From assembly GCA_025355565.1 (NCBI GenBank), contig JANXZK010000002.1, positions 15,238 through 79,237 of the forward strand: 64,000 nt of DNA. Direction: 5' to 3'. Positions 1 to 16,579 of this stretch are shown here, in pieces. Both the position numbers and the translations under genes were made by a program. Numbering within the stretch: position 1 is the first letter of the stretch; each line of letters opens with the position of its first letter. The notes beneath the pieces are model-generated. The model worked only from the letters and a program-made list of their open reading frames with translations. It had not been told where the DNA came from and searched no databases. This DNA comes from a bacterium. GTDB lineage: Bacteria; Patescibacteriota; Minisyncoccia; Phycocordibacterales; PALSA-1337.

Positions 1-1058
1 AACATTCAAGATTTCCCCCGTCTCGAACACATTCTTTACTTTACCATCCCTGTCGCTAAATTCAACCCTGACCACTTCAGCGACCTTATTCCTCCTTTCT
101 TCCACCTGTCTCCGGAGTTCCTCTTCCATTTTGTCTTTTTCTTTCTCTAGCCGACGTCTTTCTTCTTCAAGCGTCTTTCCCTTCAGAGCTTCCGCCGCCT
201 TTTGAGCCAAGGCCAAATCTTTTTCAGCCTTCATCCTCGCCCTTTTCTGTTCCCTCTCAATCCTCCTCTCCTCATCGCTCATATTCTGATAGACATACTC
301 ATTCCCTACCTCCTCGGCAGTGCCGACCAGAGCGACCACACCTTCGCGCAAAAGCATCGCGCGGTCACAATATCTCTGCACTGTAGCGATGTCATGCGTC
401 ACCAATATGACCGTCTTGCCCATCTCCTTGTACCGTGCGAACTCTCGTAGGCACTTGGACTGGAAATTACTATCCCCCACCGCCAATACCTCATCCATGA
501 GAAGGATCTCCCTATTGGCATGAATAGCGACGGAGAAGGCCAACCTGACCTGCATACCACTCGAATAGTTCTTGATCTTCTGGTCGATGAAGCGCTCCAG
601 CTCGGAGAAAGCCACGATGGAATCGAACTTTTCATCTATCTGCTTTTCAGTGAGACCGAGAACAGTCGCGTTCAGATAGATATTGTCACGTCCAGAAAGC
701 TCCGGATTGAAACCGATGCCGAGCTCTAGGAACGGCGAGACCAGGCCGCGTATATTGACCGAACCGCCATTCGCCGTATACACGCCAGCCAGGATCTTTA
801 GGAGCGTAGACTTGCCACTGCCGTTACGACCGAGGATGCCGAAGAACTCTCCCTTCTTCACTTCGAAAGAGACGTCTTTCAGGGCGAAAAACTTTTCATA
901 ACTCTTCTTCTTGAAGAGGTTCACGAAAGCTCCTTTCAGGCTATTGGTCCGCTCATGCGGTATGGTGAACTGCTTCGAGACATTCCTGACGGAGATGGCG
1001 GGAATGGCGGGGATGTGCCCCGTTGCAGTCGCTTTGGATTTGTGTACGTTATTGGTCA
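1..1058 (-). CDS. ABC transporter ATP-binding protein (Wzt/TagH-like, polysaccharide or teichoic-acid export), partial; C-terminus lies beyond the window edge
   Basis: Minus-strand translation from the ATG at 1058 gives MTNNVHKSKATATGHIPAIPAISVRNVSKQF...FFGILGRNGSGKSTLLKILAG, a Walker A/P-loop of ABC ATPases. The ORF runs off the 5' edge, so it is absent from the ORF track. It lies downstream of the ABC-2 permease at 4671..5450 in the same orientation. Confidence 0.8.
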
Positions 1059-1063
1059 TGGGT

Positions 1064-2074
1064 TTATTTAGCCTTCGTTTTCTTTATCTTCTTTCTCCCT
1101 TTTGCGCTTTCTATAGCTCTCTGCGCCGCTTCGTCAAAATCAACGTCCTGTTTCGCTTCGATCTGCTTGTACTCATCGAATTTCTTCTCCGCCATTTCCT
1201 TCATGAGTTCATGGGAGATTTTACCCGCATCTTTCAAGATATTCCTATCATTGATGGTCAAAAAACCATGTAACTTTTCTACCCAGTCCTTCATAGTCAT
1301 CGGTATTCGTTTCATGGCTTGTCCATCGGCGAACACTAGATATTGTTCAACTAGATTATCTAACTGCAACAGCTCCTGTTCAGTTAGATAATTTTTTGCG
1401 ATAACAACCTCCTCCTTCGTCGGCTTCGCCCCTCTAAAATTGGTGAGCCCCAGATACTTCTTACGGCTATCTACCCTCCCAACTACTATCTCTGCTGTTG
1501 TTTTTCCAGTGATCGCGAAATGCACTTTGTTCTGAACTGTTTTAAAGAACGAAATGCTCTCTTCGTTTGTCGGGTCATAATCGACACTGGTCGCGTATAT
1601 ATCAGTGATCTTACGATAGAATCGCTTCTCTGATGTGCGGATATCAGCTATACGTCGAGTCAATTCCTCGAAATAGTCAAACGGTAAGTCAGGATTCTTC
1701 AGACGTTCATCATCAAGTATGAATCCTTTCACTATATATTCCGATAATCTTTCCGTGGCCCATTTACGGAAAGCGGTGCCTTGTGAGGATTTTACCCTAT
1801 ATCCGACGGCAATAATGAGGTCCAAATTGAAATAATGTGTAGGTTTTTCCAGAAAATCGGAATTTCCGATTTTCTGCATAGTCTCACGTTCCACAAGTTC
1901 ACCCTCTTTGTATATATTCAAAATATGTTCGTTGATAGTCGACCTAGCCTTGCCAAATAACTGTGCCAGGAGATCCAACGTCAACCACACAGTATCACCG
2001 TCAAACCGCACATCTATCTTGACGTGACCCTGCGAATCTCTATATATGACGATCTGTGAATTGAGATTTTTCAT
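1064..2074 (-). CDS. RhuM-family (virulence RhuM) protein
   Basis: Strong match to the RhuM family: IYRDSQGHVKIDVRFDGDTVWLTLDLLAQLFGK...INEHI, FNLDLIIAVGYRVKSSQGTAFRKWATERLSEYIVKGFILDDERLK. I placed the start at the internal Met (MKNLNSQ) because the longer ORF (to 2233) overlaps the upstream gene. Confidence 0.8.
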   Translation of the reverse strand: MKNLNSQIVIYRDSQGHVKIDVRFDGDTVWLTLDLLAQLFGKARSTINEHILNIYKEGELVERETMQKIGNSDFLEKPTHYFNLDLIIAVGYRVKSSQGTAFRKWATERLSEYIVKGFILDDERLKNPDLPFDYFEELTRRIADIRTSEKRFYRKITDIYATSVDYDPTNEESISFFKTVQNKVHFAITGKTTAEIVVGRVDSRKKYLGLTNFRGAKPTKEEVVIAKNYLTEQELLQLDNLVEQYLVFADGQAMKRIPMTMKDWVEKLHGFLTINDRNILKDAGKISHELMKEMAEKKFDEYKQIEAKQDVDFDEAAQRAIESAKGRKKIKKTKAK

Positions 2075-2123
2075 TATTCTTTCATCTATATCATTTCCGC
2101 CACCGTCTGTTTCCTGCCCCGGT

Positions 2124-3248
2124 TTACACTGATAATAGATCCTTCGGCGTAACGATGCTAGCTTTCGCATGCGGATACAGTTCTTCAAATTGTGAAAAAG
2201 ATACATCCTTACCGCCGCTCCATTTGCATTCATAGGCGGAGATAGTGGTACCTTTTTTTTCGATCACATCGATCTCATGTCCTTTTCTAGTCCTCCAAAA
2301 CATTATTTCCGGAGGAAAAATAGACAGATTTGTTCCCTCTTTTATCTTCTCACTCACGAAATAATTTTCAAATATGGAGCCAGTATCTTTGCGGTCAATT
2401 AGCGGAGTCTCTATATCGACCAATGCATTCCTGACTCCGACATCCAGAAAGAATATCTTAAAAGCTTTCTTCAGCTCTGTTCTTGGATCATTGGAAAACG
2501 AACGTACTATCCTCACGATGAATGACTGCTCCAGCAATCGTATATATCTCTGTACGACAGATCTACTCACACCTAATTGTGTCGCCAATTCGTTGAGCGA
2601 CACCAACTGGCCGACTTGCAAGGCAAGCAGTTTGAGAAGATCCTCGAATGCACGAGGGTTTCGTATCGCCTCGAATATGAAAACGTCCTTATACAGATAC
2701 TGTGTGGCGATATTTTTTAGCACGATCTTCTTTTCTTCAATAGTGGATGCAGCGACAACAGCTGGATATGCGCCATATAGGATAAGTTCGTGAAGTCCTT
2801 TCATATCCACGCTTCTAGACACCTTTATTTCATCCAACGAAAGCGGTAGTAACGTGAACTCAAAGACTCTCCCCGTCATTGGTTCCTTTATCTTGTTTGA
2901 TAGATCAAATGACGAAGACCCCGTAGCCACTATCTGAACACCAGGATATGTATCATGAAATGCCTTAAGAATAGCTCCGATATCTTGGATAGTTTGTGCC
3001 TCGTCGAACACGACGATCTTTCTTCCCTCAACAAGCGGCAGTAATTCGTCTGGTTTCCCCACCACGAAATGTTTCCTGACATCCGCTAACTGGCAATCAC
3101 AATAGGCCCCATCCTTCCCAAACACTCCGACTATCTTCTTGACGAGGGTTGTCTTTCCAGATTGCCGAGGGCCCAAAATGGCCAACATCCTCCCTTTAAA
3201 CAAAGATTCGTTGATCAATCCCTCAATTTGGCGTTTGAATATAAGCAT
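2124..3248 (-). CDS. AAA+ ATPase of the COG1373 family (AAA_14 + DUF4143)
   Basis: Walker A ILGPRQSGKTTL, Walker B VVFDEAQ, and the C-terminal DUF4143-like part. The start may instead be the upstream Met at 3299. Confidence 0.75.
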   Translation of the reverse strand: MLIFKRQIEGLINESLFKGRMLAILGPRQSGKTTLVKKIVGVFGKDGAYCDCQLADVRKHFVVGKPDELLPLVEGRKIVVFDEAQTIQDIGAILKAFHDTYPGVQIVATGSSSFDLSNKIKEPMTGRVFEFTLLPLSLDEIKVSRSVDMKGLHELILYGAYPAVVAASTIEEKKIVLKNIATQYLYKDVFIFEAIRNPRAFEDLLKLLALQVGQLVSLNELATQLGVSRSVVQRYIRLLEQSFIVRIVRSFSNDPRTELKKAFKIFFLDVGVRNALVDIETPLIDRKDTGSIFENYFVSEKIKEGTNLSIFPPEIMFWRTRKGHEIDVIEKKGTTISAYECKWSGGKDVSFSQFEELYPHAKASIVTPKDLLSV

Positions 3249-3367
3249 ATTATGACTATTGTAACAAATTGCTCTTTGAAGAGCAATTTGTATACTCACC
3301 TTATTTTGGAGCTTTTTGATGCAAATTGTAACTGGACATTAGGTTTAAACTAAGTTCCACAAGGAGC

Positions 3368-4594
3368 TTATAGCTCCCACGGGTATACAGTCATTGTTCT
3401 GTCTTTATTTTCTCCATATAGAGCCACTGTCTTGTAATCACCCGATGCATATTCCCTGGAAAAATACTTCATAGCCGAGGTATCTACGTTAGAAAAATTA
3501 AGTTTCGTTTCTATAGGCAACGGGATATTCTTTTCCTTTAGGATGAAATCTATCTCTCTTTTATCGGTTGTTCTCCAGAAATAAACTTTACTAATTCCGT
3601 GCTTTTTGATCAATTCCGAAAATATGCTTGTCTCGAAAATGTTTCCCAATGTCTCTTTTGGAAATTCCTTTAACCATAATATGCTCATAAGCCCTGTATC
3701 AAAGAAAAAAATCTTGGGTGTCTTGAAGAGCTCCTTCCTCTTGTTCTCGCTGTAGGGTCTAACAAGTTTGATGATGTATGTTTCCTCCAAAAGGAAAAGG
3801 TATTTTTCCACGGTTATCTTTGATAAGTTTACCGTGTTCGCCAATTCTGTCACATTGAGAAGCTGCCCGCTCTGCGACGCTAATACTTCTAACAATCGAT
3901 TGAACTTATCGATTTCTTTTATCTCCGCCAGATCCCTGATATCCTTCTTTATATATGTATCGATGATCTGATTCAGATAAGCGCTTTTCTTCTCTGTATC
4001 AGGGGTTAATACTATTTTCGGATAACCGCCATACCTGACATACTCTTCATAATGAGAAATGAGCTCCGATATCTTTTTTGAGGTATGTATTTCGCCCCAG
4101 TCCACAAAAAAATCTTTGAACAATAACAACTCATCGAACGACAGATTAAATATATCGAAATTCACAGTTCTGCCAACCAAAGAATCCTTGAATTTGCTTT
4201 TGATATTGAAACTAGACGAACCGGACACGATCAGTTTGATTTCTTTGTGATGATCGGCAATGATCTTGAGAAATGACGAAGGGTTCTCAAGGTATTGGAT
4301 CTCATCTATGAATACGAACAGTTTTTTTGGTGAGATCGCTAATCCCTCCTCCTTTAGATATGACAAGAACGACTCAACACCGTCATCCAAAATTTCCTTA
4401 AGCCGACTATCTTCGAGATCGATAAAGTGTGCTGATTCCCCTTTTTCTTGAACGATTTTCGCTAAATAATACAGAATATGAGTCTTACCGACTTGTCTCG
4501 CGCCATGAAGTACGATGATATCATCAGTAAACAAATACGGCGCTATTTTATCGATTATGATTCTTTTATACAATATTTCTGGGATTTTGATCAT
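3368..4594 (-). CDS. AAA+ ATPase of the COG1373 family (AAA_14 + DUF4143), paralog of the adjacent gene
   Basis: VLHGARQVGKTHIL Walker A, VFIDEIQ Walker B, and the same architecture as 2124..3248. It is strongly AT-rich compared with its neighbours. Confidence 0.75.
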   Translation of the reverse strand: MIKIPEILYKRIIIDKIAPYLFTDDIIVLHGARQVGKTHILYYLAKIVQEKGESAHFIDLEDSRLKEILDDGVESFLSYLKEEGLAISPKKLFVFIDEIQYLENPSSFLKIIADHHKEIKLIVSGSSSFNIKSKFKDSLVGRTVNFDIFNLSFDELLLFKDFFVDWGEIHTSKKISELISHYEEYVRYGGYPKIVLTPDTEKKSAYLNQIIDTYIKKDIRDLAEIKEIDKFNRLLEVLASQSGQLLNVTELANTVNLSKITVEKYLFLLEETYIIKLVRPYSENKRKELFKTPKIFFFDTGLMSILWLKEFPKETLGNIFETSIFSELIKKHGISKVYFWRTTDKREIDFILKEKNIPLPIETKLNFSNVDTSAMKYFSREYASGDYKTVALYGENKDRTMTVYPWEL

Positions 4595-4670
4595 ATGAAA
4601 ATATGGCTTATCATATAACGCAGTATACTTTAAAACCGATTTAAAGTAAAGTACACTATACTTTAAATCC

Positions 4671-5450
4671 TTATATCATCTCCGCCACGGTCTTCTCATA
4701 TTTCCTGAATATGAAGAAAGCGATGATTCCTGCGACCACGATACCTGCGACCATGGCCATGAAATGCCAGAAAGTGGTGAAGTTGCCATTGATGATCCCC
4801 TGCTTGGCATAATGGATGATGAAAGCCAATGGATTCAGCAAGATGAACTGCCAGTATTTTGTGGGGATGATAGAGAGTGGATATATGATAGGTGAAGCAT
4901 ACATGAGAACGGACAAGACCACCTCCCAGACCATCGATAGGTCACGGAAACGAACATAGAATGGTGCTGTGAGGAATGAAAAAGCCACGGCTAAGATATA
5001 CAGCAATATGGCGTACACGATGAACATGGCGATGCCTGCGATCGAAGGGATCTTGTTATATAGAATGAAGAAAAGCGCCAGGACGATCAGATTCATGCCA
5101 AAGACGAACAGAGCGTTCATGGTCGAGCCTAACACGATGGTCCATCTCGGCACATATATCTTCGTGACCAATTGCGATTTATTAACCAGAGACATGAGTC
5201 CTGTCATCGTCGCTTCAGAAAAGAATTGGAACAGAAGTATGGCCGTCAAGAGTTCCAATGGATAGAGCGGCGTCCCAGAATTCCTGAAATTGAAGAGCGA
5301 TGAGAAGACGAAGTTCAATATCGTGAACATGAGGAGCGGTTTCAAGATCACCCACACATAGCCCAAAACACTGCCATGGTAGCGTAGCTTGAAGTCCGTC
5401 TTCGCTATACGCATCACTAGTTCTCTGTGGTTTTCGTGGGTGGGGGGCAT
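4671..5450 (-). CDS. ABC-2 type transporter permease (Wzm/TagG-like polysaccharide export)
   Basis: Six predicted TM helices. The conserved ABC-2 N-terminus FKLRYHGSVLGYVWVILKPLL is typical of Wzm/TagG permeases. Confidence 0.8.
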   Translation of the reverse strand: MPPTHENHRELVMRIAKTDFKLRYHGSVLGYVWVILKPLLMFTILNFVFSSLFNFRNSGTPLYPLELLTAILLFQFFSEATMTGLMSLVNKSQLVTKIYVPRWTIVLGSTMNALFVFGMNLIVLALFFILYNKIPSIAGIAMFIVYAILLYILAVAFSFLTAPFYVRFRDLSMVWEVVLSVLMYASPIIYPLSIIPTKYWQFILLNPLAFIIHYAKQGIINGNFTTFWHFMAMVAGIVVAGIIAFFIFRKYEKTVAEMI

Positions 5451-5538
5451 GGGATGACTTATATATGTTACGCTCGGTTGGAATCATACTACATTAAAAA
5501 CCGCACAGTTCCAACTTGGAAAAATCACACCAACAACA

Positions 5539-7716
5539 CTATGGTTGAACTTCCTTTATTGCCGCTTCGATCTCGTCCCTCGCCTGCGGATAGAAACTCT
5601 CTATTGAGCGCAGAATCGCCACCGCTTGATCAACATTTCCGGCTGCATATTGTGCTCGAGCCTTCTGGATCAGAGAACTTATACTTTCTGCTTGAGCTAT
5701 AAGCCTCTGATATACCTGAGTCGCCTCCGCCAATCGACCAGACGATGCGTAGCCTTTCGCTTCACTGACGAGAGCAGTGTCTGCCCCAAGAACTCGCATA
5801 CCCTCATCGCCTCGACCATCAATAACGAGCGCCACGGCATACGCAGATGCCGCCTTGGCATATCCTGGAGCCAATTCGTAGGCATGTTTTAGTACTGCCA
5901 CAGCCTGATCCATCTTATTCTCAAACATATAGACTGAGGCCAGTTCAAAAGCTATAATTTGTTCATTTGGAGCCAAAGATAATCCTTTAGTTAGCGAGGT
6001 CTCTGCCTCAAGAAGCTTGCCTATCCGTTTTAAGAAAGGACCGCTTACGTAGTAAACGTAAGCATCATTAGGAGTAGCGGCTATCTGTTCAACTATCCGT
6101 TGCAAAATCAGATCTATAAAAGATTGCTTGACCGCGCCACTGGCCGAAGGATTCTGCATGACATTATCAGCGCAAGATATCATCTCATAGAGGATATACT
6201 TGCTCGACATGGTGTTACCAAAAAATGTGGCCATCTTGAATAGATCCAGACTATTATCCGGCTTGGAACACGAGTAGCTGGCCTTACTAAGATACACATT
6301 GGAGAGCAAAGGTCTTATATTCAGATAATAGACCGTAAATATTGCAGTAACGATTATAACGGGTGCGATGACGTATTTCGTTGCATCTATAGAGACAGAT
6401 ACCTTCTGAGATTCCCTCACTTCAGCGCAACCATCTCGACTACCATGCAAGGAATCGACCAGAGCAAGTACTGTAAAGAAGAATACGTAGCTAGCCAATG
6501 TATCAAAAACAAAAAAGTTGTGGACGAAATATCCCAACAACAAACCTATCATAGTGCATTTCGTCCTATGAGCGATCGATGACTTGCATATCGTGATCAA
6601 AAGCGAAATGAAGATGGCTAGATATGCCAAAAACCCGGCGAAGCCGAAAGCAACAAGCTGATCGATCACTACATTATGTGCCATATCAACCCACTGCTCA
6701 ACGTTGTACATGGCCGGATTGTAATTCTTCTGAAAGGAATAGATAAAATTTCCCTGTCCCCAGCCCAAGATAGGCCTTTCCATGATTCCATTCATGCCTA
6801 TCGGCCAAATATATTGTCTGGATTGGTCACTTGCCGTCCAAGATATAGACGCAAATCTCTTCAGCGTAGAGTTACCCTGAACAGCTGAACTCGTACGATT
6901 CAACCAAAAAAACACACCGATAATGATCACGAGGGCTATGGCACAACCATACATGATGCGCAATCTCTTTCTAGACTTGGACCCCAAAACAGAGTAAACT
7001 GCAAGTGCGAGCATGGTCCCGAGAATCAGTCCCAGAAACGTACCCCTTGTGCCCGTCTCGAAGATGTCGTAGGTGAACAACAATGCCAGAACAACGTATG
7101 TGGAGAGCAGCGCCTTCGAACAATCACCTTGCTCCAATGTATCAATAAACAGATACACAGTGAAAAATACATTGAATAACAGATATGCTGCCAGGAAAGT
7201 TGGATTACCAAGGAATGAGTCAATGCGAATGGTATCGAAATGCATCGCCGTCCACCCAAAACTCTGGAACAATCCGTACACAGCGACGATAAGTGCAACC
7301 ACCAAAGACAGGTTGACCCATCTGCGCCACAGTCTCTTTGTATCGCCGACAGCGAACATACTTTTGATCACCAAATAAAATGCAAAAAGATGGGAGATCG
7401 TTATCCAGCCGTCCATTCGGTCAAAATTCGACCATAAACTTTGTAGAGGATCGATACCGACTAGATCACAGATGAAAGACACAGCTACAAATACTGCTAC
7501 AACGATAGTAAGTGGCGTAAATCTCGGACGATATCTCGTGTCTAGTATAGCCAAGATTGCCCAAGTAGCTACTGCAATTTCGACTAATACCCTAAAGTAA
7601 AACGCCTGCCCCGTCACATACGGGACAACCATTGACGATATCACCACGACTGGAAAGATGGGTACCAAAAATATGGCAGCCATCGTCACATATTTTGAGG
7701 TTCGCTTGATATCCAT
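5539..7716 (-). CDS. O-antigen ligase-like (Wzy_C) polytopic membrane protein with C-terminal TPR repeats
   Basis: ~10 TM helices, a large loop with a Wzy_C-like region, and a C-terminal TPR-like helical repeat region (AYELAPGYAKAASAYAVALV...). Confidence 0.6.
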   Translation of the reverse strand: MDIKRTSKYVTMAAIFLVPIFPVVVISSMVVPYVTGQAFYFRVLVEIAVATWAILAILDTRYRPRFTPLTIVVAVFVAVSFICDLVGIDPLQSLWSNFDRMDGWITISHLFAFYLVIKSMFAVGDTKRLWRRWVNLSLVVALIVAVYGLFQSFGWTAMHFDTIRIDSFLGNPTFLAAYLLFNVFFTVYLFIDTLEQGDCSKALLSTYVVLALLFTYDIFETGTRGTFLGLILGTMLALAVYSVLGSKSRKRLRIMYGCAIALVIIIGVFFWLNRTSSAVQGNSTLKRFASISWTASDQSRQYIWPIGMNGIMERPILGWGQGNFIYSFQKNYNPAMYNVEQWVDMAHNVVIDQLVAFGFAGFLAYLAIFISLLITICKSSIAHRTKCTMIGLLLGYFVHNFFVFDTLASYVFFFTVLALVDSLHGSRDGCAEVRESQKVSVSIDATKYVIAPVIIVTAIFTVYYLNIRPLLSNVYLSKASYSCSKPDNSLDLFKMATFFGNTMSSKYILYEMISCADNVMQNPSASGAVKQSFIDLILQRIVEQIAATPNDAYVYYVSGPFLKRIGKLLEAETSLTKGLSLAPNEQIIAFELASVYMFENKMDQAVAVLKHAYELAPGYAKAASAYAVALVIDGRGDEGMRVLGADTALVSEAKGYASSGRLAEATQVYQRLIAQAESISSLIQKARAQYAAGNVDQAVAILRSIESFYPQARDEIEAAIKEVQP

Positions 7717-7758: not shown

Positions 7759-9303
7759 CTACTTCCCTTTATTTAATTGTTCTCGTGTTGCGGGACCTAC
7801 TACACCAATCACACTTAAGCCGAATTTCTTTTGATACGCCTGAACTGCCGCCTTTGTCTGTGTTCCAAAATATCCTGTGATAACACCGGTAAATAAGCCA
7901 TCGCTCTTTAAACGTTCCTGGAGCAACCTAACCTCGGGGTCTAACACACCATATGCTGTCATACCGGAATACAGATAACGAGTGAACGTCTCGGAGACTG
8001 GCGCAGATTGGACATAAGCTGGCTGAATAGTCGTTTGAGCTAAACTTGCACCAGACGGAGTTTTCGATGAATTTCCGACCCATAGATAGCTTTGACCTAC
8101 TAGACCCCTAGCGTTTGTGAAAGAAATGACCAATGGCAAAGGTGGGATATCTTTGCCAGTAGATCTATAAGAGGCATAATACAGTCCATCGCTTCCCTGA
8201 CTCACTGCTGTCTGAACCCCACCGATTCTGACTTGCACATTTGTTACAGTTTCATTCGTTCCAAAATTGATACTAATGGTGCTCCCGGCGCCAAAGAATA
8301 AGCCTAGAACGTTGTTCGAGGAGATCGATACCGAAGAAAGTTGAGGTGGCTGATTGAACCCCGAAGTCACGGGAGCCAGAACTGTAGGCTGAGTCGGTAT
8401 AGCACTACCAGGAGCTAGAGAATGAACCACTATAGAGCCACAAAGATACCCTGCGGCACATACTGATACCGTTGACTGCCCCACAATGAGACCTTTTAAC
8501 ACTAGACTCGTACCACTAACGCTTGCCGATACTGCATCTTTATTTGTGTTCGTTATACTATCATAAAAACCTGGTCCATATATGCCAATATTCTGTGCAG
8601 GTTGTCCGGCGACGACATACGCAACAACTTGACTGAAAGTAATAGATTGGGTTGGTGCCCGAACCGATACATTAACCGTGCCACAACCGGCAGTCCCAGC
8701 ACAGACCGAAATGACTGACGACCCGACATTCAGACCAGTGACCAGCATCGAATTGTTATTTGCCTGAATAGTAGCCGATACTACTGATGGATTAGAATTC
8801 CCTTGTACCAACAACGTATTCACTGTATTATCTGCAAAAATATTTGCGCCCTGCCCTATTGTCAACGAAACATTGTTTTTAGATAGAGCTAATAATCCGT
8901 TTTGACCAGATATACTCCAAGTAGCCGGCCAAGTTACCTTCGTAGAGTCAGTCCCGTTTACTGATACGTATACAGACATTCCGCCACTCAATCCATAAGA
9001 ATTTGGAGCAACAGAAATGGTAAATGCGCCGTTAGAATCTGTGCTACCGATATCTATCGAGGTATAGTGAGTATCTACCGTAGTATTATTGGCGGAATAA
9101 TTTGGATAACTGAATTTCACAATTGCATTATGCTCTGCACCTATAACGCGTAGATTGACCAAAGAAGCGGTGCTAGTTAGAGTCAGTGACGGGGTAACCG
9201 AAGCCGACACTCGGTTATACGATGTTAACGGCATTATCATCAATACAGTTGTCATAAGAGTAATATTTGTAAAATATCTAAAGATATATTTGTTTGTTGC
9301 CAT
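7759..9303 (-). CDS. Secreted Ser/Thr/Asn/Gly-rich surface protein with C-terminal peptidoglycan-binding (PG_binding_1) domain
   Basis: N-terminal signal/TM segment, long low-complexity β-rich region, and a C-terminal LQERLKSDGLFTGVITGYFGTQTKAAVQAYQKKFGLSVIGVVGPATREQL PG_binding_1 motif. Confidence 0.6.
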   Translation of the reverse strand: MATNKYIFRYFTNITLMTTVLMIMPLTSYNRVSASVTPSLTLTSTASLVNLRVIGAEHNAIVKFSYPNYSANNTTVDTHYTSIDIGSTDSNGAFTISVAPNSYGLSGGMSVYVSVNGTDSTKVTWPATWSISGQNGLLALSKNNVSLTIGQGANIFADNTVNTLLVQGNSNPSVVSATIQANNNSMLVTGLNVGSSVISVCAGTAGCGTVNVSVRAPTQSITFSQVVAYVVAGQPAQNIGIYGPGFYDSITNTNKDAVSASVSGTSLVLKGLIVGQSTVSVCAAGYLCGSIVVHSLAPGSAIPTQPTVLAPVTSGFNQPPQLSSVSISSNNVLGLFFGAGSTISINFGTNETVTNVQVRIGGVQTAVSQGSDGLYYASYRSTGKDIPPLPLVISFTNARGLVGQSYLWVGNSSKTPSGASLAQTTIQPAYVQSAPVSETFTRYLYSGMTAYGVLDPEVRLLQERLKSDGLFTGVITGYFGTQTKAAVQAYQKKFGLSVIGVVGPATREQLNKGK

Positions 9304-9316
9304 AATCTTGACTTAT

Positions 9317-10345
9317 TTAATTAGTAGCAGACACGATAAAGGTAACTGGGACTGTGGTTGAATTGTAGTTGTCATTTCCTATAAGTAATGTATGCTGTCC
9401 TGCAGGTACAGTAGTCGGGATAGTGAACACCAAAACTGTTCCGTCTGGAGACACATATCTTTTCGTTGCTCGAAGATTTGAATAATTTGTATCAAAATAT
9501 ATGGATGACGACATAGTAAATCCTGAACCAAATAGCACGATCGATGTAGCATCATCCGCATAAGCTGAAGATGGTATGACCGAGGTTGCAGCCAGTTGTG
9601 AAGCGACGATCGTAAACCATCCACTCATCTGGTCGCTCGAAACTGAACTACCGCCTGCGCTCTGTAATCTTATGCGATACGTACCCGCTACGACATTTTG
9701 ATATGCATCGGGCTGAGATAGATAAACCCTACCGACTTTCCACAAATATTGATCATCGCCTATACTAGTAGACTGGTTCAGTACAATGAAGCCCGCTCCC
9801 GATCCTCCTGGTTGCTCCAAACTCAGATTGTATGTACCCAACATAGGTTTGCTCCATCGGATAACCGTGGAACTTCCCACGGAAAGAACCTGTCCGACAG
9901 ATGGCGATATTATAGATCCGTTAGCAGTTGTAAATACAGGACTTGTAGTTACGGCTAGTGTTTGTGTTACAGGGTTGGTTACTGTTGAAGAGTTGCTGAC
10001 ATCAATGGAACACGTCTTCTGTTTGATCGCCGTTCGGGTAAGTGGTCCAACATAACCTGAGGCGGGAATATTATTATTGCCCTGAAATAACTTCACCGCC
10101 GCAGTTGTCGCTGGTCCGAAATATCCCGTTGAAGCAGTTTTGAAATATCCTGATGACTTCAGGTAATGTTGAAGTTCAGACACGAAACCTTGTGATCCAG
10201 CATCACTAGATCCGGAACCTATGTCATGTGACAGATTTATACAAGTCATATCTGCTCTTGCGGTAAGCCCCGATAAGAACAAAACGCAAATAGACGTCAC
10301 CAAAACAATGGAGAAAGATGTCCAATTAAATATATTCTTATTCAT
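9317..10345 (-). CDS. Secreted protein with N-terminal PG_binding_1 domain and Ser/Thr-rich region
   Basis: Signal peptide, then LQHYLKSSGYFKTASTGYFGPATTAAVKLFQGNNNIPASGYVGPLTRTAI. Confidence 0.6.
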   Translation of the reverse strand: MNKNIFNWTSFSIVLVTSICVLFLSGLTARADMTCINLSHDIGSGSSDAGSQGFVSELQHYLKSSGYFKTASTGYFGPATTAAVKLFQGNNNIPASGYVGPLTRTAIKQKTCSIDVSNSSTVTNPVTQTLAVTTSPVFTTANGSIISPSVGQVLSVGSSTVIRWSKPMLGTYNLSLEQPGGSGAGFIVLNQSTSIGDDQYLWKVGRVYLSQPDAYQNVVAGTYRIRLQSAGGSSVSSDQMSGWFTIVASQLAATSVIPSSAYADDATSIVLFGSGFTMSSSIYFDTNYSNLRATKRYVSPDGTVLVFTIPTTVPAGQHTLLIGNDNYNSTTVPVTFIVSATN

Positions 10346-10375
10346 CTCTCAATAATACCACATTTTCATGTACAC

Positions 10376-10401
10376 AAAAACCACTCTTTCGAGTGGTTTT
10401 T
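10376..10401 (-). terminator. Rho-independent terminator (bidirectional hairpin) downstream of the 10450..12303 gene
   Basis: aaaaaCCACTCtttcGAGTGGttttt: perfect 6-bp GC-containing stem flanked by an A-run and a T-run. Confidence 0.55.
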
Positions 10402-10449
10402 GTTCCAACTTTGTAACCCGTTGGGAGGAGTAGAACTTAACTTAGACTA

Positions 10450-12303
10450 CTACTGGAACATAACGGCCTTGAGTACACTTGAAATCTGTGAAGACTGCAA
10501 GAACAAGTTAGCCGGTGTTGAAGCTGAAGTTCCATAATTAAGTGTTGATACAGAGACTGTACCAGACTGTGCATTCGATCCGTTAGCTTGATAGGTGACC
10601 GTGAAGGTCTTTGTGCTACCTGGGCCAACGTAGAAGTACAGTGGAGGCACGCTCGTATCATCCTGGCTTGAATCATTATCAGAGAAATCTTTTGTAGAAG
10701 TCGAGATAGTGAATGTAGAAGAATGAGTGACTCCGACAGCCAAAGCTGCGTTCGTCGAAACATAGACTGGGTTGTTTCCAGCAGTCAAGCTATAAGTAAA
10801 CTTGAATGTTTGAGAACAAGTTGCCAATGTAGTGTCGCAAGTCTTTGCACCGAACGATGTTTGCAAGTTGCTTGCAGTGACGCCTGTGGAAGTAAAGGAC
10901 TGGGAATTCGCCAACAGAGTATTAGCTGAGTTATTTATAACAGTGTTATAAGTAGCATCAATAACTGATGGATTGAAGTAGGCACTAGTTGATACCGTTC
11001 CTGCTGTAGGCAGAGATACTCTCAATGTGGTGTTGTCAATGACTCCAGCAGTATTTTGGACAATCGTTGCTGAAATAGTCATAGGTACATATACATCAGC
11101 AGTCAACGGAACATTCAAATTACTGAATGTGGTAGTAGTACCAATCGTGCTAGCTGAATATGTCTGACCATTAATCTTCAATTGTACATTCGCAAGAGCT
11201 GAAGCAGCGGACACTCCAGCTAGGCTGTCAATTTTGACATCCAACCTCTGAAGTGTACCAGCTTCATTCTGAACCTTTATATCGAAGATACCGAGGACAA
11301 CGTTCTGAGTTTGAGCGGCTGTTGAAACCTGGATAAGTCCCTGTGCAGGTGAATTTGAATCAGTTGTTACAACAAGCTGACCAATGTTCGAGCCCTGGTA
11401 AGTGAAGCCTCTATATCCTGTACCCTCTGTTGTGGTAAGAGTACCGTCACCTCGTGTCTCTGTGCCTGTGATACCTGTTCCATCAACTGCACGAACCTGA
11501 GCCTGTGTGATAGCAATCGGACCACTTGAGCGATCTGAAACCGCGTTGAATGATAGATTGACTGTCAAGTATTTGCTCTGAGTTGCTTTAACAACAAGGT
11601 TGACTGGGACTGTGATCCTGTAATCTGAACCAACAGTGAGTTCGCTGAAATTACCTTGATTCAAGTTGTTGACTGAACCAACGACTGCACCTGTTTCATC
11701 CTTGATCGTGATCGAGTTAGCATAAAGCCAAACACGGGTATTGAAGTCAAGAGAGAAATTGGTAACTGCCATATCGGAAGCGTTAGCCTGAAGCTTGTAT
11801 CCTACAACATCGTAAGCCTGGCCCTTGTAAGCTGTTACGCCTGAAGGAGTTGTCCAGATTGAGAATGCAAGAGTACCAGCAATGCCTGGAGTTGTGATCC
11901 CTACTGGAGCACCAACTACTGGAGTTGTGCCTGTCCTAGGAGTACAATCATATCCAACTGGACAGACTACTGTACCTGTTGGAGTTGTTAGTGAAGAAAC
12001 ATCTGAACCATTCAAAGCTGCGCGGGTCAAAGGACCAACGAAACCTGTTGAAGGAATGCTGTTTTCTGCTTGGTAAGCTTTGACGGCTGCCTTGGTTTGT
12101 GAACCGAAGTAACCTGTCTGTGCTGCGCCTGAAGCAATAGAAGGAATACTGTACCCTGCGCTCATGAGCATTCTCTGAAGAGCTGTAACTGAAGCACCTG
12201 TTGAACCAACCGTTAGGTTAGAATTAAAGGTGAAACCCTGTGCTGAAGCGATCATAGCGACTGCCAATACGGCAACGCCTGTCGCGATCATTATTTTTTT
12301 CAT
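10450..12303 (-). CDS. Secreted protein with N-terminal PG_binding_1 domain and long Thr/Ser/Gly/Val-rich region (paralog of 9317..10345)
   Basis: Signal peptide MKKIMIATGVAVLAVAMIASA, then ALQRMLMSAGYSIPSIASGAAQTGYFGSQTKAAVKAYQAENSIPSTGFVGPLTRAAL. Confidence 0.6.
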   Translation of the reverse strand: MKKIMIATGVAVLAVAMIASAQGFTFNSNLTVGSTGASVTALQRMLMSAGYSIPSIASGAAQTGYFGSQTKAAVKAYQAENSIPSTGFVGPLTRAALNGSDVSSLTTPTGTVVCPVGYDCTPRTGTTPVVGAPVGITTPGIAGTLAFSIWTTPSGVTAYKGQAYDVVGYKLQANASDMAVTNFSLDFNTRVWLYANSITIKDETGAVVGSVNNLNQGNFSELTVGSDYRITVPVNLVVKATQSKYLTVNLSFNAVSDRSSGPIAITQAQVRAVDGTGITGTETRGDGTLTTTEGTGYRGFTYQGSNIGQLVVTTDSNSPAQGLIQVSTAAQTQNVVLGIFDIKVQNEAGTLQRLDVKIDSLAGVSAASALANVQLKINGQTYSASTIGTTTTFSNLNVPLTADVYVPMTISATIVQNTAGVIDNTTLRVSLPTAGTVSTSAYFNPSVIDATYNTVINNSANTLLANSQSFTSTGVTASNLQTSFGAKTCDTTLATCSQTFKFTYSLTAGNNPVYVSTNAALAVGVTHSSTFTISTSTKDFSDNDSSQDDTSVPPLYFYVGPGSTKTFTVTYQANGSNAQSGTVSVSTLNYGTSASTPANLFLQSSQISSVLKAVMFQ

Positions 12304-12825: not shown

Positions 12826-13632
12826 TTATTTCAACGAATACCTACTCCATCTCCTTTCCCCTTCCTTCATGATGAGACCCCTACTAACCAGATCCAGGAG
12901 CTCACGTTGAATAGTCTTCTCGCTGCAATCTTTGATGACTTTGGCAAAGTCTTTGATGGTAAGATTGCTCTGCGTCTTTAGGACATTCAGGATCGTCTCT
13001 TGTCTATTTGTTTTCTTCTCCCGAATCGATATGTGTCCTTGAATAGATGTTCTATTGCTTGATACTTCATACTTCACACCCCCCGCCTGTCCTTTAGCAT
13101 CACCTTGGTTGGGATTGCCGCCACTCCTACTATCCAATCTAAAGCCTGAGCTAAACAGATCAGGTGTCTTAAAGAATGACTCTGACAGCACGTAACCAGC
13201 CTTTTCGGCACTCTGAGCGAGACGGTCACGGAGCATAGCGACAACGAGATCGATCTCTCTCACGAGCAATCCATGATTCATGTCAGAAATAAGGTTGGAG
13301 ATCTTGGCAACATTCAATAGCGAAAGAGTTTCCAGTGCCGCGGTGAAGATAGACTGGATGACGCCGCTCTTGTCTCCAGGGACTGAACTCGATGCCGTAA
13401 AGGACGAAGAGAGAAGATCTATACCGCGATCTCGCAATTCCCACTTGATCGGCTCGTCATCCTTGAGAAGTCCAGAAACGAGATAGAGCGCAGCAGTGAT
13501 CTTTTCTGTCTTTTTGAATAGATAGACCAGATAGTCTTCAGCCGAGAAAAACCCCAATGATTTCCAGTTTAATGGGTTACTGAACGAGTCTGGGTTGTTT
13601 GTCTCTTTGTTGTCCATATTTGTCTTTTCCAT
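12826..13632 (-). CDS. Hypothetical protein with C-terminal winged-helix DNA-binding-like region
   Basis: 268-aa ORF. The C-terminal ETILNVLKTQSNLTIKDFAKVIKDCSEKTIQRELLDLVSRGLIMKEGERRWSRYSL resembles a wHTH. It is divergent from ftsK. Confidence 0.45.
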   Translation of the reverse strand: MEKTNMDNKETNNPDSFSNPLNWKSLGFFSAEDYLVYLFKKTEKITAALYLVSGLLKDDEPIKWELRDRGIDLLSSSFTASSSVPGDKSGVIQSIFTAALETLSLLNVAKISNLISDMNHGLLVREIDLVVAMLRDRLAQSAEKAGYVLSESFFKTPDLFSSGFRLDSRSGGNPNQGDAKGQAGGVKYEVSSNRTSIQGHISIREKKTNRQETILNVLKTQSNLTIKDFAKVIKDCSEKTIQRELLDLVSRGLIMKEGERRWSRYSLK

Positions 13633-13785
13633 GTCCTATACATTATTTCGCTGTCTTTTAGAAAAAATGTTGATATTCCTTGTCTTTGAACATGTCCATT
13701 ATAGTCTTTGAGTTAGGAATTGCAAGCGAGAGTCTTGTCCACTCCTTAGAAATAAGTTTCACAATGCAAAATATGTTATTATCTA

Positions 13786-16158
13786 ATGATAATAACAATC
13801 AAATCACCACTAACCATCATGGCAAAGAAAAAAGATACAGATAGGGCATCAAAGACGCATCTCTTGGATGACATGAACACGGGGACAGTGCAGACGATAT
13901 TTGCCATACTATCATTCCTCGTGACAGTGATCGCGCTCCTAGCCGCATTCGGCAAAGCTGGCGTCGTCGGAGACTATGCATTTATGTTCTTCTCCAGAAT
14001 GTTCGGCATCGGCTACTATCTCATTCCTTTGGTATTTGCCATGCTGGGAATCACTTTCTTGCAGGGTGTAAAGAAGCGATTTGAGATCTCAAAAGGCATC
14101 GGTGCCCTCCTATTCTTCCTGTCCGGATTGGGACTCATCCACATCGCCTACGGAGGAGCCGGGGGGGTCTTTGGACGCATCATCGACTACCTGTTCCTAA
14201 AATCTATAGACACTATCGCCACGACGATACTCATGGTCGCGCTCCTCGTCATCTCCGTGTTCATGACATTTAACCTGCACCTGTCATGGGACATGATCGC
14301 GATATGGAGAAAGAAGGGATTGACCGAAGATGAACTGGAGGTCATGGCGAGAAAGAAGAGGGGTGACATCGAGGATGACTCGATCGAGAAACTAGCCGCG
14401 GCGGCAAATGCCAAGGATGCTGACGGACTCTCTGCTCGAGAGATCGAGGCAGCAGCGGCAAAAGCTCGCACGGATGCTCTGGCGGCAGAAAAGAGGAGGA
14501 AGAGTGGTAATGGCGCGCTCGGACTCGATCTATCGGATGATGACGAAGCTGGGTTTGCTTCTTCGATGTCGATGCCGAGCCTGAAACCGTTCACTCCTCC
14601 ACCATTGTCACTGCTCGAGAAAGATCGCGGTAAACCTGAGACCGGAGACATCAAATCCAACGCCAACATCATCAAGCGCACTCTACAAAATTTCGGTATC
14701 ACTGTGGAGATGGACGAGATATCGATCGGACCATCAGTCACTCGATACGCTTTGAAACCCGCAGAAGGCGTGAAACTTTCCCGCATCGTCGGACTGAACA
14801 ATGACCTCTCTCTAGCTCTCGCCGCCCACCCTATCCGTATCGAAGCACCGATACCCGGCAAGTCTCTAGTCGGCATCGAAGTCCCGAACACTGCCAAAAC
14901 CACCGTCGGTCTAGCTACACTCTTGGCCGCCACAGATTTCCAAGGATCGGAGAAACCATTGCTCGTTTCACTAGGCAAAGATATCACTGGCGATGCGCAT
15001 TTTAGTAATGTCGGAAAAGCTCCGCACATGCTCATAGCTGGAGCGACCGGATCCGGAAAATCAGTGACTATCCACACCATCATCACTTCTCTCCTATATC
15101 GCAATTCCCCACAGAGCCTGAAGCTCATAATGATAGACCCCAAACGCGTAGAATTGACCCTATACAACAAAATCCCGCACTTGCTGACTCCTGTTATCAC
15201 TGACCCGAAAAAGGCCATTCTAGCTCTAAAATGGGCCGCCAAAGAGATGAGTCGCCGTTACGATATCCTAGAGAAGAATACCGCGCGAGACATCGATTCG
15301 TACCACAAAAACATTCTGGCACCCGCAGTCGCCAAATGGAAAATGGGAAATGGAAAATGGAAAAATGACAAAACAGACAGCACAAATAAATCCGCGACCG
15401 ACGCTGGCCCCACCGCACTTCCTGAGACCATGCCATATATCGTCATCGTCGTCGATGAATTGGCTGATATCATGCAGTCATATCCTCGCGAACTAGAGTC
15501 CGCGATCGTCAGGCTCGCTCAGATGAGTCGCGCCGTTGGTATCCACCTCATCATCTCCACACAGCGTCCGAGCGTGAACGTCATCACCGGTCTCATCAAA
15601 GCCAACATCCCGACCCGTATCGCTCTCCAAGTCGCTTCTCAGATCGATTCACGTACCATCATCGACCAGATGGGTGCGGAAAAATTACTCGGTGCCGGTG
15701 ACATGCTCTACCTCGGCGGGGAGATGTCCAAACCTATCCGTCTGCAATCAGCTTATATCTCCGAATCAGAAGTCAAGAAAGTCGTGAAATACATCGTCGA
15801 CCAATACAAAGACGAGATCAATGACACCATCAACTTTGCCGCCACACCTACCGAAGCTGGTGCCACGGCCGCATTCGATGCCATGAGCGACAGCGACTCA
15901 CTCGATGACGATGATGACATGTATGAACCGGCGAGAGAGATGGTCATCACCAACAACCGAGCTTCGACTTCCTTGATCCAGCGCAAGCTCGGCATCGGAT
16001 ATTCGAGAGCGGCCAAGCTCATGGATATGCTCGAGGAGCGTGGAGTCATCGGTCCAGCAAATGGTTCAAAGCCGCGAGAGATCATCGGAGTTGGTGGTCC
16101 AACAGAATTACCGCCGTCCAACATCGAAGATGGCAGTGCCCAAAACTTGACGATCTGA
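13786..16158 (+). CDS. ftsK: DNA translocase FtsK/SpoIIIE
   Basis: N-terminal TM helices, Walker A LIAGATGSGKSV in the motor domain, and a C-terminal gamma domain LIQRKLGIGYSRAAKLMDMLEERGVIG. The start may instead be the Met at 13819 (MAKKKD). Confidence 0.9.
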   Translation: MIITIKSPLTIMAKKKDTDRASKTHLLDDMNTGTVQTIFAILSFLVTVIALLAAFGKAGVVGDYAFMFFSRMFGIGYYLIPLVFAMLGITFLQGVKKRFEISKGIGALLFFLSGLGLIHIAYGGAGGVFGRIIDYLFLKSIDTIATTILMVALLVISVFMTFNLHLSWDMIAIWRKKGLTEDELEVMARKKRGDIEDDSIEKLAAAANAKDADGLSAREIEAAAAKARTDALAAEKRRKSGNGALGLDLSDDDEAGFASSMSMPSLKPFTPPPLSLLEKDRGKPETGDIKSNANIIKRTLQNFGITVEMDEISIGPSVTRYALKPAEGVKLSRIVGLNNDLSLALAAHPIRIEAPIPGKSLVGIEVPNTAKTTVGLATLLAATDFQGSEKPLLVSLGKDITGDAHFSNVGKAPHMLIAGATGSGKSVTIHTIITSLLYRNSPQSLKLIMIDPKRVELTLYNKIPHLLTPVITDPKKAILALKWAAKEMSRRYDILEKNTARDIDSYHKNILAPAVAKWKMGNGKWKNDKTDSTNKSATDAGPTALPETMPYIVIVVDELADIMQSYPRELESAIVRLAQMSRAVGIHLIISTQRPSVNVITGLIKANIPTRIALQVASQIDSRTIIDQMGAEKLLGAGDMLYLGGEMSKPIRLQSAYISESEVKKVVKYIVDQYKDEINDTINFAATPTEAGATAAFDAMSDSDSLDDDDDMYEPAREMVITNNRASTSLIQRKLGIGYSRAAKLMDMLEERGVIGPANGSKPREIIGVGGPTELPPSNIEDGSAQNLTI

Positions 16159-16198
16159 TCACTGGATTTGATCCCGCATCCATATATCGACGACTCAT

Positions 16199-16579
16199 AT
16201 GACCAGAACTTCTCTCATTCGATCGATCAAGATCATCGCCTCCGCATTCGCGGCACTACTCATCATCGCCTTCGCTGTTTGGCGCTCGCTCGATTACGCT
16301 CGAGGACCGAAAGTTACGATCAGTTTACCCACGAACGGCGCGGAGATCACAGCAAAATATGTAACCGTGAAAGGCCGAGTCGAGAGAGCCAATGATCTCC
16401 TCATAAATGGCAAAGAGATCAACGTCGACGAGCATGGCAATTTTTCCGATAACATCGTGGTCTTCCCTGGTATAAATGTGATCACTGTGACCGCAAAAGA
16501 TCAGTTCGGTAGGTCAGTCAAGGATCAGCTGACTTTGATTGGCAATGATGGCTCATCTTCTACGAGTCTCACAAATTGA
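16199..16579 (+). CDS. Hypothetical small membrane-anchored protein
   Basis: 126-aa ORF with an N-terminal TM helix and a β-rich C-terminal domain. Confidence 0.45.
   Translation: MTRTSLIRSIKIIASAFAALLIIAFAVWRSLDYARGPKVTISLPTNGAEITAKYVTVKGRVERANDLLINGKEINVDEHGNFSDNIVVFPGINVITVTAKDQFGRSVKDQLTLIGNDGSSSTSLTN

Follow-up and report, generated by a model that had tools for sequence, protein, structure and literature searches.

A probable stepwise stack of single-gene defence candidates inside the wzm-wzt exporter operon of a Patescibacterium

Embedded defence candidates and the exporter operon

The PDC families of phage-defence candidates were defined by their embedding in BREX, DISARM and type I restriction-modification (R-M) operons (bioRxiv 10.1101/2024.01.29.577857), and members of two of these families are found here in an operon of another kind. 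In the 64,000-nt stretch of Patescibacterium DNA that was analysed (the window), a RhuM-family gene (PDC-S05) and two ATPase genes of the COG1373 family (PDC-S01, with AAA_14 and DUF4143 domains), named cogA and cogB, lie between wzm and wzt, the permease and ATPase genes of an ABC exporter. The five genes are co-oriented on the minus strand, in the order wzm, cogB, cogA, RhuM, wzt. We consider it likely that the segment 1060-4670 was built up stepwise from three independent single-gene defence candidates, at a recurrent hotspot within the exporter operon, and we infer a defence function for them at this site.

RhuM has been predicted to be a toxin domain, standing in the position of Doc in R-M neighbourhoods (PMC3710099), and one PDC-S05/RhuM gene in E. 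coli B gave protection against T7, T5 and T4, with plating of T7 and T5 down about 1000-fold (bioRxiv 10.1101/2024.09.26.614923). PDC-S01, an ATPase fused to a PD-(D/E)xK domain, is the fourth most common entry across prokaryotes (PMC12988326), and DUF4143 is listed in the catalogue of the PD-(D/E)xK superfamily (PMC3424549); besides this catalogue and PADLOC-based surveys, literature searches on DUF4143, AAA_14 and COG1373 brought up almost nothing. A first-pass annotation of the window had stated that a RhuM/COG1373 trio has no characterised function, which needs correction, since both families are published phage-defence candidates and one RhuM gene is protective in E. coli.

The RhuM gene of the window resembles the described PDC-S05 genes in being a single gene with a full-length match, embedded and co-oriented between operon genes, but its host operon is a glycopolymer ABC exporter and not an R-M, BREX or DISARM operon, its host is a Patescibacterium, and anti-phage activity is known for one unrelated representative, in E. 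coli only. The COG1373 proteins match PDC-S01 end to end, keep Walker A/B and the E..D..ExK residues and have solitary genes as relatives; the difference is that two distant members (31% identical) are stacked here. The embedding of PrrC in EcoprrI and of Septu in Hma (guilt by embedding) gives a similar picture of co-oriented cargo inside an intact operon, with the cargo varying between loci, although the operon is here a housekeeping-type exporter and not an immune system. The defence-island hotspots of Pseudomonas, Serratia and the E. coli P2/P4 satellites also have conserved flanks and variable, defence- and toxin-rich cargo that differs in close relatives; in contrast to these, the present junction measures about 0-50 nt inside a two-gene operon, takes up one to three cargo genes and has neither an integrase nor a phage or satellite backbone.

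The insertion and the wzm-wzt junction in related genomes

A scan with a Wzm profile, one genome per species, gave 80 loci, and other look-ups added L087, L090, L165 and L169-L171 (loci are denoted by L numbers); the 31 close relatives are those whose junction is visible and whose Wzm is 60% identical or more. The wzm homologues (n = 1628) are 65-86% identical within Patescibacteria. In L004, the closest genome relative (Wzm 85% identical), the wzm stop overlaps the wzt start as ATGA, an overlap present also in L170 and L171, and in 16 further relatives (Wzm at least 60% identical) the gap is shorter than 60 nt. In all, wzm and wzt are adjacent or overlapping in 19/31 close genomes, and also in many distant relatives. 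In the alignment with L004 the insertion begins right after the wzm stop (4671) and ends right before the wzt ATG (1059), so that it covers 1060-4670. Because the relatives have wzm and wzt adjacent or overlapping, the 3.6-kb segment is a real, derived insertion. The first-pass annotation had proposed such an insertion from the co-oriented wzm and wzt lying about 3.6 kb apart with RhuM and two COG1373 genes between them; coordinates and Pfam agree with this arrangement and synteny with its derived origin, while two details changed, as the wzt ATG begins at 1059 (not 1058) and the spacer between the RhuM stop and this ATG is 4 nt (not 5).

The permease and the ATPase belong to one Wzm/Wzt-type exporter, as had been assumed, and are cognate and normally adjacent. 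They are neighbours in relatives, the nucleotide-binding domain (NBD) of wzt is 63-91% identical to the genes after wzm in 42 related loci, the identities of wzm and wzt NBD co-vary (Spearman 0.69), and the wzt orthologue of L170 carries Wzt_C. A mosaic history of wzm versus wzt, considered as a recombination signal, was dropped, since this correlation leaves no clear incongruence. In NCBIfam an equivalog-level match to a characterised exporter (TagH, Wzt/RfbE, KpsM/T) was not reached: the best models for wzt were TagH (205.7 bits, cut-off 538) and galactan Wzt (162 bits, cut-off 400), both below the cut-off, and wzm scored 55.8 bits against galactan Wzm (cut-off 380). The Logan contig L003, which ends about 77 nt after wzm, was considered as a variant with an empty site and rejected, since its end already contains cogB promoter sequence and is an assembly break.

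Composition also sets the insert apart from its flanks. The GC content is 0.416 in RhuM, 0.432 in cogA and 0.374 in cogB versus 0.465 in wzm and 0.505 in wzt, and GC at third codon positions (GC3) is 0.46-0.47 in the three inserted genes versus 0.64-0.66 in wzm and wzt. The earlier impression that the inserted genes are AT-richer, and the distal ATPase gene very AT-rich, is therefore correct, with cogB within the lowest 2.4% of 1.2-kb pieces.

The wzm-wzt junction is a recurrent insertion hotspot across Patescibacteria, with defence or toxin cargo that differs between lineages. Among the 31 close relatives it is occupied in 12 and empty in 19, with at least seven cargo types (Table 1), and the closest relatives (wzm 81-86%) each show a different junction state. 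Cargo that matches PADLOC or Pfam models comprises SoFic, PDC-S01, PDC-S05, PDC-S13 (a fragment), a PDC-M04A-like DUF3800, NYN, Zeta_toxin and PemK, the last being among the junction cargo of more distant relatives. In distant loci of the Moraniibacteriota type, wzm is followed by a large LCAT-like protein, and wzt comes only after a variable stretch, which holds COG1373 (5 open reading frames, ORFs), 23S_rRNA_IVP, PaaX_M, Fic, zeta toxin, and Polbeta and NTase_sub_bind nucleotidyltransferases. In 1.15 Mb around 80 wzm genes, searched with hidden Markov models (HMMs) on all ORFs and with tblastn, COG1373 and RhuM genes were found at the exporter locus only. Eleven of these 14 genes lie inside wzm-wzt, which by a generous definition is 22% of the DNA (p = 1.3e-5); two of the other three are between Wzy and wzm, and one adjoins Wzy. 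The Wzy/wzm junction also gathers COG1373 (L007, L008, L087, L090, L170) and Fic genes. Neither in 1060-4670 nor in the small gaps of relatives was an integrase, a transposase or an att site found, only target duplications.

Two further observations touch the cargo of the junction. Four genomes (L006 11147-12001, L169 9223-9867, L061 16925-17776 and L064 17402-18250) have, downstream of wzm, a 284-aa protein (67-83% identical) that matches nothing in Pfam or PADLOC and is a regular occupant of the hotspot. The window itself has two Fic-family genes (49576-50634 and 52888-53946, both minus) flanking RNase R (50794-52839): one is SoFic-like (PADLOC SoFic 3.4e-40) and shares 57% identity with the SoFic that L020 has between wzm and wzt, and the other encodes a PDC-S04-like protein with a FUR-like winged helix-turn-helix (wHTH) before Fic, has a GC content of 0.415 and showed no flanking direct repeat.

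Three independent genes, their products and their order of arrival

RhuM, cogA and cogB are independent units that happen to be stacked, because relatives of each occur without the others elsewhere. Relatives of cogA (56-78% identical) at 79 metagenome loci are solitary and in unrelated contexts, with a cogB orthologue adjacent in 0/79 and RhuM nearby in one only (L130), where it is distant (38% identical) and follows the cogA-type gene. The closest cogB relatives (81-83% identical) are found in a cluster resembling a type IV secretion system (T4SS) and in glycosyltransferase loci (L084, L085). Homologues of RhuM are 70-83% identical across many Patescibacteria lineages; those at 76-80% stand alone between wzm and wzt in L165 and on the P0274 contig, where RhuM overlaps the following gene by 4 nt, while a relative in L166 adjoins an unrelated ATPase and a homologue 78% identical lies in a type III R-M/DUF3800 island (L167). 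The trio, which the first-pass annotation had taken for a possible accessory module, is thus not conserved. An addiction module, also suggested there, has no specific support, as there is no toxin-antitoxin pair and the insert proteins are 336-408 aa long with no small partner ORF; the suggested defence-like nature of the genes, on the other hand, is plausible from the HMM matches given below.

The ENA contig that carries P0122, from a related organism, has the closest cogB homologue (83%) inside the conjugation/T4SS-like cluster, together with PrgI, a TraC-like protein, a TraG P-loop protein and a T4SS pilin. The stacking is extreme in L147 (3955-10282), with a run of four COG1373-like ORFs or fragments immediately 5' of a distant wzm/wzt-like pair.

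The order of arrival can be approached from the 49 nt between cogA and RhuM, in which GACGGTGGCGGAAATGATATAG (2107-2086) matches the last 22 nt of wzm with 3 mismatches, with a chance expectation of 0.01 matches in the window (mismatch-tolerant search, 2 matches found). The similarity reaches about 31 nt with a 6-nt gap (deletion). This ghost of wzm starts 7 nt past the cogA stop, ends 11 nt before the RhuM ATG and is closest to the wzm 3' ends of the window's own lineage. The relative L165 has an undisturbed wzm/RhuM junction (wzm-TAA-AA-ATG-RhuM...TAA-GATT-ATG-wzt), in which RhuM is a bare ORF and the TAA-N4-ATG junction is as in the window. The simplest history would start from an ancestral wzm/wzt, which RhuM would have entered as a bare ORF to give wzm/RhuM/wzt, the state still present in L165; cogB and cogA would then have entered at the wzm 3' end, with a duplication of some 22-36 nt of this end, of which the copy farther downstream would be the ghost before RhuM. 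Between cogB and cogA, which may have come together or separately, there is no repeat, the repeat search gave no repeats bounding the whole 3.6-kb insert, and a wzt 5' ghost is absent from the window.

The start of RhuM is the ATG at 2074, matching the homologues in the alignment, and not the ORF start at 2233. The protein scores 335.8 bits against PF13310 (cut-off 33.7) and matches the PADLOC PDC-S05 model PDLC04853 with E 2.2e-125 over residues 1-329 of 336. The gene has no promoter region of its own. An AlphaFold (AF2) model from 32 homologues (58-83% identical) was poor, with a predicted local distance difference test (pLDDT) of 54, and its N-terminal part alone was moderately confident; Foldseek with this model returned DdrC and MarR-type winged helices at E of at least 2e-3. 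At most, the model suggests an N-terminal winged-helix-like, DNA-binding domain, and it gives no basis for a RhuM domain fold or a relationship to Fic/Doc. A sequence search of solved structures gave nothing for RhuM or cogB, and P-loop matches alone for cogA. With a DNA-binding N-domain and the predicted toxin domain, RhuM would act as an anti-phage or abortive-infection effector; this and the other protein actions proposed here are based on family membership, motifs, structure and literature. Wolbachia phage WO (gp8) and Streptococcus satellite phages encode RhuM homologues that are 38-46% identical (records H11, H12 and H20), so the family also travels on phages and satellites.

Translation of cogA begins with the ATG at 3248 and not with the GTG (3299). 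Being 31% identical, cogA and cogB are, judged from their sequences, distant paralogues of different subfamilies; the first-pass annotation was right that both ATPases are of the same COG1373 family, but a recent tandem duplication is not what made the pair. Both match PADLOC PDC-S01 end to end (cogA E 3.3e-115, cogB E 4e-85), as well as AAA_14 (7e-26 and 8e-28) and DUF4143 (1.8e-36 and 4.7e-39). Walker A GxRxxGKT (GPRQSGKT in cogA) and the DE of Walker B are invariant in the alignment and kept by both, and the PD-(D/E)xK residues are E321, E347-I-D349 and E362-x-K364 in cogB and E..EID..ECK in cogA. In a third COG1373 subfamily (L033, L045, L008) the ExK lysine is absent, IQVAY replacing IExK.

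The AlphaFold model of cogB is confident (pLDDT 89.7, predicted template-modelling score 0.89) and has an ATPase-helical-winged-helix module followed by a C-terminal unit which carries the nuclease residues and, after residue 317, consists of a helix, three strands, a helix and a strand. As modelled, the first module seems to resemble STAND and Orc/Cdc6 ATPases. In comparison with STAND NTPases (Avs, NLR/NB-ARC) and the archaeal PF01637 ATPases (2qen, 2fna), cogB is about 400 aa long, has its nuclease C-terminally and is without a TPR/LRR sensor: it ends after the nuclease domain at residue 408, with no C-terminal TPR-like repeats. There is no membership of cogB in the STAND class at the level of sequence, where Pfam gives AAA_14/DUF4143. 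Most likely, a COG1373 protein would work as an ATP-dependent switch that licenses nucleic-acid cleavage, combining the STAND/Orc-like module with PD-(D/E)xK.

Every COG1373 subfamily seems to have its own operator. In cogA this is a perfect 13-nt palindrome, ACAAATTGCTCTT-CA-AAGAGCAATTTGT, which overlaps a -35-like TTGCTC (3286-3281) and is followed by a -10-like TACAAT (3263-3258), the hexamers being assigned by eye; the cogA mRNA would be nearly leaderless. The cogA-type element, ACAAWTTGCTYTT-NN-AAGAGCAATTTGT, then TAYAWT and an ATG about 10 nt on, was present in 14/14 loci inspected, in unrelated contexts, and similarity among these loci stops just upstream of the palindrome; half-sites at -60/-40 occur in 50-54 of 64 cassettes. 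The cogB-type element of about 70 nt, common to L023, L084 and L085 (unrelated contexts), has TTTAAAGTATA/TACTTTAAA repeats around TTTACT-17-TATACT (sigma-70-like, 4650-4622), with repeated 17-mers at 4621-4637 and 4654-4670 and an inverted repeat at 4638-4652/4655-4669. Other COG1373 subfamilies have different palindromes over TTGACA/TATAAT-like promoters. The third subfamily has a perfect 18-nt palindrome, TTTTAAGTATACTTAAAA, beside a TTGAC -35, with the half-site repeated at the start codon, within about 90 nt 5' of the COG1373 ATG (L033 15297, L045 16422; in L008 upstream of 8783). Homology between unrelated contexts begins at the upstream element and ends at the stop codon, so that the cassette limits are sharp, from 48-130 nt 5' of the ORF to 0-10 nt past the stop. 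This layout is that expected of an autoregulated gene; each COG1373 gene would be a self-contained unit, whose own promoter overlaps a palindromic operator to which the winged helix probably binds.

As for wzt, all the genes point the same way and terminator prediction gave none on the minus strand in 900-5700, so that it is probably expressed by read-through that starts at the promoters of wzm, cogB and cogA. A promoter would not fit into the 4-nt spacer, and translation of wzt therefore probably depends on coupling to RhuM or on re-initiation after it.

Flanking duplications, rival explanations and meaning

Direct repeats of locus-specific target DNA, 18-115 nt long, flank many COG1373 cassettes (L023, L070, L093, L094, L096, L105, L140, L147, L149, L151, L157 and L158), and they often include the upstream gene's 3' end or its terminator, or the 5' end of wzt. 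Of 67 cogA-type cassettes, 17 were above the 99th percentile of cross-locus controls. When the comparison was made with the other 250-600 aa ORFs of the same loci, flanking repeats scoring at least 18 were found for 20/79 COG1373 ORFs versus 19/610 other ORFs (odds ratio 10.5, p = 2e-10), i.e., about 25% versus 3%; two of the four top-scoring cases outside COG1373 are wHTH-Fic genes. Ghosts of the wzt 5' end precede the cargo in L023, L033, L040, L043, L068, L070 and L078 (Table 1), of which L068 has a zeta-toxin cassette without COG1373. Such ghosts point to repeated duplicative insertion into the first 40-180 wzt codons; the truncated copies measure 59-540 nt and are 75-95% identical to the intact downstream copy. 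Insertions at the exporter locus are typically duplicative, and therefore the gene ends survive. The duplication could be encoded by the cassette or could come about by general recombination via conserved wzt/wzm sequence. The cassettes showed no terminal inverted repeats, no conserved termini inside the flanking repeats and, at the 3' end, no conserved site or second operator, Pfam gave no match to a DDE, HUH, Tyr or Ser recombinase, and no direct repeats were present around the cogA-type genes between Wzy and wzm (L087, L090, L170, L008). Long and variable target duplications (8-514 bp) are known from IS1634/IS1549, which are DDE elements (PMC2266710). The likeness is in the long, variable direct repeats of the target, while the COG1373 cassettes have no DDE transposase or terminal inverted repeats, consist of a regulated ATPase-nuclease gene and show repeats in about 1/4 of copies.

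These duplications are the basis of the main rival, which partly overlaps with the favoured stack of defence candidates: COG1373 (PDC-S01) could be a selfish, autonomous single-gene cassette, an autoregulated ATPase-nuclease that duplicates 18-115 nt of target beside gene ends and possibly uses its own ATPase-nuclease for this, with wzm-wzt as a tolerated site, since a long duplication keeps the flanking gene intact. The sharp limits, alike in unrelated contexts, the repeat excess (20/79 versus 19/610, with 17/67 above the control percentile), the locus-specific nature of the repeats, of which the window's wzm ghost is one example, the IS1634/IS1549 precedent and the occurrence of cogB-type proteins (about 62% identity) in Nitrospirota, Deltaproteobacteria and Patescibacteria all speak for this. 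We nevertheless regard it as rather unlikely, given cassettes without terminal inverted repeats, a conserved 3' site or a DDE, tyrosine or serine recombinase, and with repeats at only about one in four; the zeta-toxin cassette of L068 and two wHTH-Fic genes are also repeat-flanked, so the mechanism may be general. A role of the inserted genes as exporter accessories, in regulation or quality control of glycopolymer synthesis or export, would agree with the recurrence of COG1373 and RhuM at the Wzy-wzm-wzt locus in many lineages, with the closest cogB relatives lying among glycosyltransferase genes (L084, L085) and with the DNA-binding winged helix of COG1373. It is, however, very unlikely in view of the patchy distribution (19/31 close relatives empty), the heterogeneous toxin- and defence-type cargo (SoFic, zeta, NYN, PemK, DUF3800), the presence of the same genes in R-M and T4SS-like contexts, and operators that precede COG1373 genes and not wzm or wzt.

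Joint acquisition of RhuM, cogA and cogB as one cooperative system, for example with one ATPase as sensor, another beside it and a toxin as effector, is largely refuted and highly improbable. Loci of cogA relatives lack an upstream cogB orthologue (0/79) and nearly always RhuM (1/79), cogB relatives (81-83%) are solitary elsewhere, RhuM stands alone at the junction of L165 and in the R-M island of L167, and the wzm ghost between cogA and RhuM speaks for different arrival times; each COG1373 gene also has its own promoter and operator. What can be said for such a system is that the genes are contiguous, co-oriented and separated by short spacers, that L130 has its distant RhuM after a cogA-type gene, and that tandem COG1373 pairs recur (L070, L093, L120, L147), although the subfamily order is reversed in L070. 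Most improbable of all is an ancestral five-gene order in this lineage, with adjacency in relatives explained by deletions: the RhuM identity parallels the wzm identity in four genomes, and the decaying N-terminal RhuM fragment of L018 shows that losses occur, but wzm and wzt are adjacent or overlapping throughout the tree, including distant clades, a deletion is unlikely to remake the exact ATGA (L004, L170, L171), the insert departs from its flanks in composition, an insertion event has left its mark in the ghost repeat, and the closest relatives (wzm 81-86%) are each in a different state.

Several points weigh against the stack of defence candidates as we have presented it. COG1373 is a defence candidate only, since the single PDC-S01 gene put to the test in E. 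coli did not belong to the protective set (bioRxiv 10.1101/2024.09.26.614923). No integrase or transposase is present to account for the insertion. Polysaccharide loci are plastic in general, and the hotspot may be defence-specific only in part. The compositional argument stands for the GC/GC3 shift; the tetranucleotide deviation of the insert is only moderate (rank 23/202) and was not used as primary evidence, and other stretches of the window are equally AT-rich. The RhuM identities of 80%, 76% and 45% run roughly parallel to the wzm identities of 72%, 74% and 52%, and an old, vertically inherited RhuM with repeated losses is conceivable. Finally, every comparison genome is a metagenome assembly, and the read-through and translational coupling of wzt are derived from the DNA sequence only.

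In the rest of the window, housekeeping genes include recA, ftsK, ileS, argS and glyA, and homologues carry the names Nomurabacteria, Taylorbacteria and Paceibacteria; from both, the organism belongs to the Patescibacteria and is Paceibacteria-like. Three consecutive PG_binding_1 proteins (514, 342 and 617 aa; 7759-12303, minus) are syntenic in L004, L169 and L171 and have a very low GC3 of 0.36-0.37, and the strongest tetranucleotide deviation of the window falls within this trio, at 8.1-10 kb. The most AT-rich stretch of the window (55675-59063, plus; GC 0.37-0.38, GC3 about 0.31) lies between tRNA-Val (55400-55474) and tRNA-Arg (59790-59862) and encodes an LVIVD-repeat beta-propeller protein and a 645-aa protein that matches nothing in Pfam; with a tRNA gene on either side, the stretch may be a further acquired island. 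An isoleucyl-tRNA-synthetase-like protein of 1213 aa (30490-34131, minus) has an unusual domain insertion, His_Phos_1 (residues 513-678, E 3e-26) inside the class I catalytic region.

Table 1. Features of the exporter region in the window, and junction cargo and wzt ghosts in the loci and contigs compared.
Locus	Feature	Position	Strand	Remarks
Window	wzt, 5' part	<1..1059	-	ATG 1059-1057; runs off the window; ABC_tran E 2.7e-21; ATP-binding subunit of ABC-2 glycopolymer exporter, coiled coil, start of Wzt_C-like domain
Window	Spacer ACCC, 4 nt	1060..1063	-	RhuM stop to wzt ATG
Window	RhuM-family gene, 336 aa	1064..2074	-	Stop 1066-1064; N-terminal winged-helix-like part and RhuM domain; PF13310 E 1.8e-100
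Window	wzm 3'-end ghost with stop codon	2086..2116	-	Direct repeat of 4671-4706
Window	cogA, COG1373 ATPase-nuclease, 374 aa	2124..3248	-	AAA_14, HTH_11 (wHTH), DUF4143/PD-(D/E)xK
Window	cogA operator and promoter	3258..3291	-	Palindrome 3264-3291
Window	Spacer, cogB stop to cogA operator	3292..3367	-	Without similarity to wzm, wzt or other flanks
Window	cogB, second COG1373 ATPase-nuclease, 408 aa	3368..4594	-	AAA_14, DUF4143
Window	cogB operator and promoter	4595..4670	-	Begins directly after wzm stop
Window	wzm, ABC-2 permease	4671..5450	-	ABC2_membrane E 6.5e-13; its final 22-36 nt (4671-4706) form the direct repeat's upstream copy
Window	Wzy_C/O-antigen-ligase-like membrane protein, C-terminal TPRs	5539..7716	-	Pfam; conserved upstream neighbour; synteny in L004, L169, L171
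L008, L011	Junction cargo			COG1373
L165, P0274 contig	Junction cargo			RhuM
L018	Junction cargo			Decaying RhuM N-terminal fragment
L020	Junction cargo			SoFic
L023	Junction cargo			NYN nuclease
L006	Junction cargo			DUF3800 and unknown 284-aa protein
L169	Junction cargo			L006-type unknown protein and PDC-S13 fragment
L005, L026	Junction gap			Without recognisable ORF
L068	wzt 5' ghost	11582-11773
L070	wzt 5' ghosts	~17160-17275, 18592-18706
L040	wzt 5' ghost	17230-17732
L043	wzt 5' ghost	13132-13674
L033	wzt 5' ghost	14954-17117 region
L078	wzt 5' ghost	15732-15790

Genomes of Patescibacteria are tiny, and to our knowledge very few defence systems have been described in them. The surface glycopolymer exporter operon gives a concrete, recurrent site at which these bacteria keep and exchange conflict genes, and the exporter product may well serve as a phage receptor. 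The locus also indicates that the embedding of defence candidates is not limited to immune operons, and that repeated splitting need not destroy a pair of overlapping genes. For the very abundant PDC-S01/COG1373 family, the new elements are a self-operator for each gene and the frequent long duplications of flanking target DNA, which are testable features together with a proposed STAND/Orc-like switch joined to a PD-(D/E)xK nuclease. The duplications raise the question whether COG1373 genes are defence genes, selfish elements or both. If they are mobile cassettes, they would be a previously unrecognised single-gene mobile class which leaves the flanking genes intact, even the overlapping wzm/wzt, and at the wzm-wzt junction of Patescibacteria both the graveyard and the nursery of such insertions would be visible.

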